Assembly: GCA_038078595.1 (NCBI GenBank)
Contig: JBBTYR010000033.1
Location: forward strand, 1 to 11,918
Source: Patescibacteria group bacterium
Lineage (GTDB): Bacteria > Patescibacteriota > Minisyncoccia > UBA6257 > 2-01-FULL-56-20
Length of the DNA stretch: 11,918 bases
Direction of reading: 5' to 3'
The notes under the pieces were generated by a model. It was not told the origin of the DNA. It saw nothing but the letters and a program-made list of their open reading frames with translations, and did no database searches. A program made the translations under genes and the position numbers. Shown here piece after piece: positions 4,889 through 11,918 of this stretch (the stretch's first letter is position 1; every line of letters starts with the position of its first letter).

Positions 4889-4896
4889 AACATTCA

Positions 4897-4924
4897 AGCC
4901 CTCAAGAAATTGGGGGCTTTTTTT
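4897..4924 (+). terminator. rho-independent terminator of the flotillin operon
   Basis: agccctcaa-gaaa-ttgggggct forms a 9-bp stem with one mismatch and is followed by T7. It lies 9 nt after the stop at 4888. Confidence 0.75.
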
Positions 4925-4987
4925 CTCTCTTGCCCCAAAGCCTAAAATTAAATAGAATCCAATTGACAGATTTTTAGTTTATTAGAT

Positions 4988-5060
4988 GGGCCTATAGTTC
5001 AGTGGTAGAACGCCTCGTTTGCAACGAGGAGGCGGGAGTTCGATTCTCCCTTGGTCCACC
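4988..5060 (+). tRNA. tRNA-Ala(UGC): tRNA-Ala (anticodon UGC)
   Basis: The cloverleaf is acceptor GGGCCTA/TTGGTCC, D-arm GTTC-AGTGGTA-GAAC, anticodon arm CCTCG-TTTGCAA-CGAGG (anticodon TGC), and T-arm GGGAG-TTCGATT-CTCCC. The G3:U70 alanine identity pair is present. The discriminator is A and CC is encoded, followed by G. There is one U6·U67 mismatch in the acceptor stem. Confidence 0.85.
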
Positions 5061-10778: not shown

Positions 10779-10847
10779 CTTGGAGTTCTAAGATATTCAC
10801 AGTTTTACTATAGGATCGACATTGTTTCTGCTACAATTACATTACAG

Positions 10848-10876
10848 AAATTAAGAGCCGTTGGTTGTGAGGACCG
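10848..10876 (+). terminator. weak terminator-like hairpin plus T5 after the membrane protein gene
   Basis: gccg…cggc forms a short stem followed by ttttt. The stem is poor. Confidence 0.3.
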
Positions 10877-10950
10877 GCGGTTTTTAATTTGCCCTGAAAA
10901 TCCTAGATGGAATAAAACCGAGTCTGAATAGGGCGTTAACCATCTCAAAT

Positions 10951-10989
10951 TTTTGGATTAAAAAAACTGCCATCGTGATGATTCACAAA
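10951..10989 (-). terminator. rho-independent terminator for the minus-strand small gene
   Basis: On the minus strand the sequence is AAACTGUCAU-(loop)-AUGGCAGUUU followed by U7. One pair is G·U on the minus transcript. Confidence 0.65.
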
Positions 10990-11024
10990 TGACAGTTTCC
11001 GACCAATTACCTAATATGAAGCCG

Positions 11025-11243
11025 TTAGACCAGCTTGATGACTTTGGTATCATCAACGAAGCTAGTGAACGATCCAATATCTAGGTAGGTAGCATTGATA
11101 TCAGCGTTCGTAAGTTCGACTTTCGAACCCGGAGCGATTTTCAGAAGTATTCTTACGTGCCTACCTCTCGTTGCTTCTCCGTTAACCGCCGAGACCAATA
11201 TGAATTTGTCTCCCGGTTTCAAGTCGTTGAAAAGAAGGTACAT
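11025..11243 (-). CDS. small hypothetical protein (72 aa)
   Basis: The start is reassigned to the ATG at 11243, which has a strong SD (GGAAGGAGA, 7-nt spacing). The promoter at 11292-11320 lies inside the longer 109-aa ORF-track call, so that call cannot be correct. Sequence: MYLLFNDLKPGDKFILVSAVNGEATRGRHVRILLKIAPGSKVELTNADINATYLDIGSF…. It may be a small beta-barrel or swapped-hairpin-like protein. Confidence 0.5.
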   Translation of the reverse strand: MYLLFNDLKPGDKFILVSAVNGEATRGRHVRILLKIAPGSKVELTNADINATYLDIGSFTSFVDDTKVIKLV

Positions 11244-11291
11244 ACAAAGTCTCCTTCCGGTTGAAATTAGTCGATCACAGTTTCTAATAGG

Positions 11292-11320
11292 TTTATACAT
11301 TTTGACCACAAAAGAGTCAA
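11292..11320 (-). promoter_or_regulatory. near-consensus minus-strand promoter (TTGACT-N17-TATAAA)
   Basis: The reverse complement of 11315-11320 is TTGACT, followed by a 17-nt spacer, and the reverse complement of 11292-11297 is TATAAA. It drives the 72-aa gene. Confidence 0.55.
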
Positions 11321-11520
11321 GAATCCAAAAATTTGAGATGGTTAGGCAGTGCAAGATAGACCCCCTCGTTTACTTCAGGAGCGAGTATTCTACTTTGGAG
11401 AGGCTATCGGAGGCTGGTTTAGCTTGGTTCCTGTAGGGATAAACCAGCCGAGATGCAGGTGCGACAAAACCGCCGGAGTTTTGGCGACACCGGCTCTCCA
11501 AAGTAAAATACGAGCGACCC

Positions 11521-11548
11521 TTGACAGGTTTTTTCCATCCCCTATAAT
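11521..11548 (+). promoter_or_regulatory. near-perfect sigma70 promoter (TTGACA-N16-TATAAT)
   Basis: TTGACA at 11521-11526, a 16-nt spacer, and TATAAT at 11543-11548. The predicted TSS is near 11551-11556. Confidence 0.65.
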
Positions 11549-11550
11549 GA

Positions 11551-11644
11551 ACTCCGGAATGATGAATGTACTAAATCTTGCACGGCAAAGCGGCTAAAGC
11601 GCCTTTTTCGGTGTGAGTAGTGGCCGCCAGAAAGCGGCTTTTTT
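11551..11644 (+). ncRNA. candidate small RNA (~95 nt) bounded by a consensus promoter and an intrinsic terminator
   Basis: No credible ORF is present, only a 12-codon MMNVLNLARQSG with no SD. An internal GC-rich hairpin region (aaagcggctaaagcgcc + T5) is followed by the terminator GCCGC-cagaaa-GCGGC-T6 at 11623-11644. Confidence 0.4.
11623..11644 (+). terminator. strong rho-independent terminator (GCCGC-N6-GCGGC-T6)
   Basis: The 5-bp GC stem and T6 run are read directly from the sequence. Confidence 0.7.
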
Positions 11645-11882
11645 AGTCTTAAGTCACTCCGAGATTTTTGATAATAGAATAAGAAACTTCACATCAGGTA
11701 CGCATTCCTGATGGGTGAAGCATCGTGTCGCGGAGCGACACTCAAGTGGAAAATGCAAATCTCAAAATGCAAAATTTATGAAGTTATGACGCAAGTCATA
11801 ACCACCAGAATTTTTAACTTTGATTTTTAAATTTTAAATTTGAGCGACGTGAAACGGCGCGATTAAAAGTCAGTATTGGGAT

Positions 11883-11918
11883 GGTTGGTATAAGGGCAAA
11901 TGGTGGATGCCTTGACTA
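11883..11918 (+). rRNA. rrl: 5' end of 23S rRNA (partial, continues beyond the window)
   Basis: GGTTGGTATAAGGGCAAATGGTGGATGCCTTGACTA matches the conserved 23S 5' terminus (GGTTAAG…NNNGGTGGATGCCTTGGC). The upstream 230 nt is non-coding with several stable hairpins, as expected for a pre-rRNA leader. Confidence 0.55.

Follow-up and report, generated by a model that had tools for sequence, protein, structure and literature searches.

A putative leader-peptide transcription attenuator preceding unlinked 23S rRNA genes of Parcubacteria/Paceibacteria

How bacteria adjust the production of rRNA to the demand for translation has long been asked. Model organisms employ ppGpp and DksA, sensing of the initiating NTP and antitermination through Nus factors. 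To our knowledge, control by leader-peptide translation has not been shown for any rRNA operon, and the rrn leaders known to us are untranslated and lack an intrinsic terminator 5' of boxA. No description of an rRNA-leader element of the kind treated here was found in a full-text literature search. Mycobacteria have leaderless polycysteine uORFs that act in cis on downstream operons, sense cysteine via runs of Cys codons and control metabolic genes. The classical examples of control by a leader peptide are the enterobacterial trp, his, leu, thr, pheA and ilv attenuators, which resemble the locus described below in that a strong promoter, a short leader ORF and an upstream terminator are combined with mutually exclusive hairpins that share a strand, and with a hairpin plus U-run that possibly pauses the polymerase for the ribosome (PMC8632103). 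In the his and trp leaders the pause hairpin holds the polymerase until the leading ribosome releases it (PMC8632103). A second group, formed by the erm, msrD/mef, yxjB/tlrB, hflXr and topAI uORF leaders, also has a very short peptide in front of a terminator or structure; such antibiotic or translation-stress leader peptides respond to ribosome slowing and control genes that protect or modify the ribosome (PMC6851288, PMC12121999, PMC6310831). In rrn leaders, finally, a hairpin (boxB) is followed by boxA (PMC8632103).

The DNA analysed, hereafter the window, is the complete 11,918 nt stretch, and the features described from 11521 onwards lie on its plus strand. Judged by the adjacent 228-aa MS-channel-like protein, its host belongs to the Parcubacteria/Paceibacteria within the Patescibacteria (CPR); annotations of relatives read Parcubacteria Gr01-1014_20, Liptonbacteria, Paceibacterota and Colwellbacteria. 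A preliminary description of positions 11521-11644 had proposed either an independent small RNA or an rRNA-operon promoter with an attenuator that depends on antitermination. Here we compare this region with its homologues and argue that it probably is the 5' end of a 23S-5S operon with a ribosome-dependent leader-peptide transcription attenuator.

Homologous units were collected by means of synteny with the MS-channel gene, and metagenomes were scanned with a promoter-plus-motif pattern without any rRNA sequence; the unit of L011 was obtained by inspection of the region upstream of its 23S gene. This resulted in 12 distinct units (window, L001, L008, L027, L029, L039, L009, L020, L024, L022, L023 and L011), all from MAGs or metagenomes and all related, representing one class of CPR bacteria. 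Since MAFFT misregistered the terminator arms, base pairs were counted on anchor-based columns. Fold energies are equilibrium predictions of what would be a kinetic process. The layout is conserved among the units and consists of a promoter, an ATG ORF lacking a Shine-Dalgarno sequence, a short hairpin with a U-rich loop, and a CCGC/GCGG terminator with U-tract.

The promoter is of the sigma-70 type, with TTGACA at 11521-11526, a spacer of 16 nt and TATAAT at 11543-11548. As the preliminary description held, it is the best promoter of the window: it has the top score and is the sole match to all 12 consensus positions, of which by our arithmetic approximately 0.004 are expected by chance in 11.9 kb when both strands are counted. 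All 12 units retain the hexamers, as TTGACA-N16-TATAAT or TTGACA-N18-TATACT, while the spacers have diverged. The closest other species, L001, shows 83% identity to the window in coding DNA, yet window positions 11542-11717 are 94% identical, including 70 nt past the T-tract at 100%, and the DNA 5' of the promoter cannot be aligned. This combination of kept hexamers, a diverged spacer and a transcript that is 94 to 100% identical against 83% for coding DNA indicates a functional promoter and a constrained transcript. Transcription would start at approximately 11555-11556, and the promoter presumably drives the 23S-5S operon.

The preliminary description had seen about 95 nt without plausible ORF downstream of the promoter. 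Comparison contradicts this: an ORF of 12 codons plus stop, encoding MMNVLNLARQSG, runs from the ATG at 11559 to the TAA at 11595-11597 and has a counterpart in each of the other units. The segment UCCGGAAUGA, in which a resemblance to SRP helix 8 had been noted, is the 5' UTR with the start codon. Apart from the window, the peptides are MINALNLAQQSG (L001), MMNIRNLTKRSG (L008), MTISLNLKRRSG (L027), MMANKKLFDRSG (L029), MNDHKELLGRSG (L039), MLTSRKFLWQSG (L009), MFRNSNLFAASG (L020), MNACKKTLRKSG (L024), MKNLNLSLTSISG (L022), MNTNFYIKSG (L023) and MSRVSRTPSG (L011), each followed by a stop codon. The ATG is found 9-16 nt past the -10 hexamer in every unit, and the ORF has 10-13 codons, exactly 12 in nine of the 12 units. 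Including the stop, the lengths are 33, 39 or 42 nt and thus differ in multiples of three. All units end in AGY-GGC-TRA (Ser-Gly-stop), and variation in this end motif is restricted to the synonymous AGC/AGU and the second position of the stop, which is UAA in six units and UGA in six. An ATG ORF in frame with the conserved URA is present in all 12 units against none of 24 control frames. The chance of such an ORF, determined by composition-preserving shuffles, is 0.03-0.09 per unit; the product over the 10 clearly diverged units, 9e-13, overstates independence because the units are phylogenetically related, and is an upper bound on significance. Two long overlapping ORFs, 11095-11436 and 11349-11597, match no Pfam family and were regarded as spurious.

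Conservation of the frame leads us to infer that the leader ORF is translated. No Shine-Dalgarno sequence precedes it in the window, where the 5' UTR would be only some 3-4 nt (approximately 3-10 nt across units), although most other genes of the window have AGGAG or GGAGG upstream of the start codon; its translation is thus not assured. Beyond the terminal Ser-Gly the peptides are not conserved, which argues against a functional peptide. An unconserved peptide is typical for regulatory leader ORFs and uORFs. Regulatory codon runs or a conserved arrest motif, as attenuators of the described types have, were not found in the leader ORFs of the 12 units. In these respects the unit departs from the enterobacterial attenuators, which control amino-acid biosynthesis genes and not rRNA genes: it has no run of regulatory codons, its ORF begins within a few nt of the 5' end without a Shine-Dalgarno sequence, and the antiterminator strand is formed by the last two codons plus the stop. 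It also departs from the stress-sensing leader peptides, which have specific arrest motifs and target resistance factors; here the target is the 23S rRNA gene and only the C-terminal Ser-Gly is kept, for which RNA pairing accounts. With the mycobacterial polycysteine uORFs the unit shares a leaderless or near-leaderless cis-regulatory mini-ORF, but those are not in rRNA operons.

The hairpin with T6 reported earlier was recovered by the terminator scan. It consists of a 5' arm, here called c, GGCCGC at 11622-11627, the loop CAGAAA, a 3' arm d, GCGGCU at 11634-11639, and T6 at 11639-11644, and probably terminates transcription. The CCGC/GCGG core and a U-tract are present in all 12 units, with variable loops and covarying outer pairs; at least five U directly follow the GC-rich stem in 11 units, L020 having four. 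Segment a, AGCGGCU at 11589-11595, comprises the codons for Ser and Gly together with the initial base of the stop codon and is the 5' strand of a predicted antiterminator. This segment (AGYGGCU) is invariant in all units and has the same sequence as d (AGCGGYU), so that it is complementary to c (RCCGCU). Four invariant G-C or Y-G pairs, with 1-6 further pairs at the flanks, make up the a:c helix; c:d combines the same four with the covarying outer pairs. Invariance is thus confined to AGYGGCU of a, CCGC of c and GCGG of d, with variable loops, flanks and spacers. Since a never varies it shows no true covariation, and pairing of the RNA alone could suffice to explain its invariance.

Nested within the antiterminator lies hairpin P2 (11599-11614), with GCGCC at 11599-11603, the loop UUUUUC and GGUGU at 11610-11614. 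It is predicted in every unit as a C-rich arm, a U-rich loop and a GGYG arm, although the arm sequences differ. Its 5' arm, b, can alternatively pair with a in a weak hairpin of 3-4 bp, 3 bp in the window. This a:b hairpin, followed by a U-run and with the stop codon in its loop, was found in 11 of the 12 units and is a candidate pause signal, reminiscent of the pause hairpins in the his and trp leaders. The window MFE fold further contains an outer stem P1 (11577-11618) that pairs CUUGCAC at 11577-11583 with GUGUGAG at 11612-11618. P1, which stabilises the terminator conformer, is confined to the lineage of the window and L001; the other units do not conserve it.

In all 12 units, RNAs that end just before d are predicted to fold as a:c around P2. 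When pairing is barred between -15 and +14, counted from the stop codon's initial base so as to approximate a ribosome footprint, the terminator hairpin is predicted in all 12. For full transcripts, the forced terminator and antiterminator conformers differ by -5.8 to +6.8 kcal/mol, and by at most 2 kcal/mol in six units. For the window, the lineage-specific P1 gives the terminator conformer an advantage of 5.8 kcal/mol. The untranslated leader of the window may therefore also terminate, as in super-attenuation of trp, and the polarity of regulation is least secure for the window itself. For most units, antitermination and not super-attenuation is the prediction for untranslated RNA, another difference with the enterobacterial systems. 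Folded as a single sequence, the candidate RNA has no unusual stability (z -0.84), hence stability alone lends no support.

Computationally, the region thus has the structural elements of an attenuator: a leader ORF, an intrinsic terminator and an exclusive antiterminator located under the ribosome footprint. We propose that RNA polymerase would initiate at the near-perfect promoter around 11555 and transcribe the almost leaderless 12-codon ORF, the end of which, AGC-GGC-UAA, is segment a. Segments a and d would then compete for c. A ribosome at the end of the ORF would cover a together with the 5' arm of P2 and leave c, at least 23 nt further downstream, exposed; c:d would form, transcription would stop at T6 (11644) and an RNA of approximately 90 nt would be released. 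If no ribosome occupies the last codons when c emerges, a:c would form around P2, the terminator would be unable to fold and the polymerase would read through the boxA-like site described below into 23S-5S. Slow, late or absent translation would thus permit read-through. By pausing the polymerase, the a:b hairpin with its U-run may synchronise the race between ribosome and polymerase. Under this model, with its predicted direction from translation to termination, rRNA transcription would be set by ribosome loading and translation speed on a weak ORF without Shine-Dalgarno sequence, a readout in cis of translation capacity. General translation speed or availability of free ribosomes is the simplest reading of the sensed signal; ribosome-targeting antibiotics are another possibility.

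The two near-isoenergetic conformers that share a strand, with a conserved nested hairpin, would also suit a switch made of RNA only, in which the a:c helix, P2 and its U-rich loop form a pocket, binding of a small ligand or of a ribosomal protein, Nus factor or other protein there decides between antiterminator and terminator, and the ORF is incidental. Segment a and the CCUUUU region are conserved as nucleotides, GGC and AGY being the only codons used, and the missing Shine-Dalgarno sequence fits as well. Nevertheless we consider this unlikely. An in-frame ATG in 12 of 12 units against 0 of 24 controls, lengths that differ by multiples of three and alternation of TAA and TGA are unexpected in RNA that is not translated, and the conserved unpaired nucleotides are few for an aptamer. 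Nor does the region match an Rfam family. With Rfam 15, positions 11521-11720 gave a match neither at gathering score nor with E<=10; chance scores reached 12-14 bits at best, against thresholds of 34-38. Scans of the complete window (gathering) and of 10800-11918 (E-value mode) gave only chance-level matches for the candidate, and the homologous units of L009 and L011 gave nothing meaningful in E-value mode. The lack of a match to SRP RNA, 6S, tmRNA, RNase P or 5S, earlier judged by eye, thus stands; SRP, 6S and tmRNA as well as tRNA identities were rejected.

Linkage of the unit to the 23S gene is strict. All 12 units precede 23S on the same strand, the end of the terminator being 158-934 nt away from GGTGGATGCC, a conserved sequence close to the start of 23S. 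Wherever 23S was downstream of the MS-channel gene in a fetched locus, the unit was present; in about half of the loci with an MS-channel homologue S16 rather than 23S is found downstream, and there the unit is missing. An unbiased scan of both strands of 347 kb of related loci (promoter of at least 11/12, ATG within 5-20 nt, ORF of at most 16 codons) identified only these 12 units and one trivial Met-stop, and a scan of viral contigs found no unit. None of the fetched loci contains a 16S gene, hence 23S is unlinked to 16S there.

In the window the 5' end of the 23S gene occupies 11867-11918 and the gene runs off the end, as defined by identity to L001: the last 52 nt are 100% identical to L001 11517-11571. 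In L001 the Rfam LSU model covers 11533-14321 and 5S is found at 15961-16068. The 23S 5' end thus begins around 11867-11880, approximately 225-235 nt past the T-tract and close to the 240 nt estimated before. The ends of L001 23S (11520-11543 and 15272-15295) form a perfect helix of 24 bp that reaches approximately 8 nt into both leader and trailer, as expected of the processing stem, which backs the boundaries used. RNAduplex of the L001 leader against its trailer gave only this expected extended helix 1.

This linkage bears on the possibility that the unit is a gene in its own right, in which the RNA of approximately 90 nt is a small-peptide mRNA, a trans-acting sRNA or both and 23S is transcribed from a separate promoter of unrecognised type. 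In favour of this are a complete, strong promoter and terminator, the terminator fold as MFE of the window, and the ability of RNA released by an attenuator to act in trans, as described for rnTrpL of Sinorhizobium (PMC6614838). As a separate gene, however, the unit is quite unlikely. It always adjoins 23S on the same strand and was found nowhere else, and in 11 of the 12 units the sequence between terminator and 23S contains no sigma-70-like site of at least 9/12. In the window, L001, L029 and L009 a boxA-like motif starts only 22-28 nt after the U-tract, which leaves too little space for a second promoter. The terminator core is moreover frozen together with a, for which a terminator at an ordinary gene end has no need, and the peptide sequence is not conserved. 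The independent non-coding sRNA of the preliminary description is not supported: that description had itself named a conserved peptide ORF at homologous loci as evidence to the contrary, and such an ORF is present in 12 of 12 loci. Nor does the position speak for it: the region has a promoter and terminator of its own, as an sRNA gene has, but it was never found away from 23S, and no separate promoter for 23S is visible downstream.

The boxA-like motif of the window, UUUGAUAA at 11667-11674 in the wider context GAGAUUUUUGAUAAU, starts 22 nt past the T-tract, and this stretch is 100% identical in L001. It is a candidate boxA, the leader site that would bind NusB-NusE. The strict pattern YTTGAWAA is found past the terminator in nine of the 12 units, and the remainder have looser matches. 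The leader has some resemblance to the boxB-boxA-boxC antitermination system of E. coli and others, which employs NusA, NusB, NusE and NusG: it occupies an rRNA leader, a hairpin is followed by a boxA-like UUUGAWAA, and NusB is encoded by a relative. In contrast with that system, the motif lies 3' of the terminator and so cannot suppress it, and Nus-type antitermination cannot be the means by which polymerase passes. The other proposal of the preliminary description, an rRNA-operon promoter with attenuator, is supported in outline, but the likely control is competition of the translated leader ORF with the terminator through a:c and not antitermination of the boxA type.

That the hairpin and U-tract are a constitutive boxB-like, processing or RNA-chaperoning element of the pre-rRNA, with little or no termination and with translation and switching irrelevant, is in keeping with the boxB hairpin just 5' of boxA in rrn leaders (PMC8632103) and with the boxA-like motif that follows here, but is unlikely given the at least five U behind the stem in 11 of 12 units, needless for a boxB, and the competing strand a and in-frame ORF, which it leaves unexplained.

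If the ribosome-dependent attenuator is correct, reduced-genome CPR bacteria have a direct link in cis between ribosome activity and transcription of rRNA. Somewhat doubtfully, it could be extended to the idea that Parcubacteria/Paceibacteria hard-wire a Nomura-type ribosome feedback in cis, in which the weak, near-leaderless ORF would be translated only if idle ribosomes abound and a ribosome parked at Ser-Gly-stop would force the terminator, throttling rRNA without ppGpp, DksA or a trans-acting regulator; the approximately 90-nt RNA set free might act in trans as well. With its approximately 125 nt the unit is small and self-contained, which makes it directly testable in reporters or coupled in-vitro systems. 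It would also serve annotators as a marker of the rrl promoter in MAGs of Patescibacteria.

Further downstream the leader has a hairpin at 11687-11720 with loop UACGCAUU and stem cttcacatcagg / cctgatgggtgaag; L008, L027 and L024 share the loop but have different stems. A tandem AAAATGCAAA occurs twice at 11750-11773, with AAAATGTAAA twice as its counterpart in L008. The long leaders of L020, L023, L024 and L029 contain no tRNA genes.

Two other elements lie upstream. The first, 145 nt long, occupies 11376-11520 (11333-11476 in L008) and abuts the -35 hexamer. It folds far better than shuffled sequences (-64.2 kcal/mol, z -4.0) and shares 92% identity with its counterpart at the same position of L008, although the adjacent leader shows only approximately 75%; two of the differences between window and L008 change G-C into G-U on the plus strand. 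It is absent from L001 and has no Rfam match. The second, at 10915-11363 just 5' of the rrl promoter, is an ectopic copy of an insertion element of 23S rRNA. Its ends correspond to 23S exon sequence, aaaccgagtctgaatagggcgttaacc at one side and ggttaggcagtgcaagatagaccc at the other (compare L001 23S nt ~765-800 and ~812-835), and it has perfect inverted repeats of 23 nt (10937-10959 and 11322-11344) and a minus-strand ORF of 109 aa (11025-11354) without Pfam match. Scans of viral contigs found no copy of either element. In L008 the same termini flank an insertion of approximately 436 nt within the 23S gene (13259-13694).

The solitary tRNA-Ala(UGC) gene of the window, at 4988-5060, is located approximately 6.8 kb 5' of the unlinked 23S gene and is preceded by a terminator-like hairpin (4896-4919) and a weak promoter-like site (4930-4958). 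tRNA-Ala(UGC) is the isoacceptor usual in 16S-23S spacers. The 23S genes themselves are heavily interrupted in L008 (11876-19305), L001 (11517-15295), L027 and L029. BLAST of the L008 23S gene against that of L001 gives approximately 14 blocks across 7.4 kb, and LAGLIDADG ORFs are present within the 23S genes of L001 and L027.
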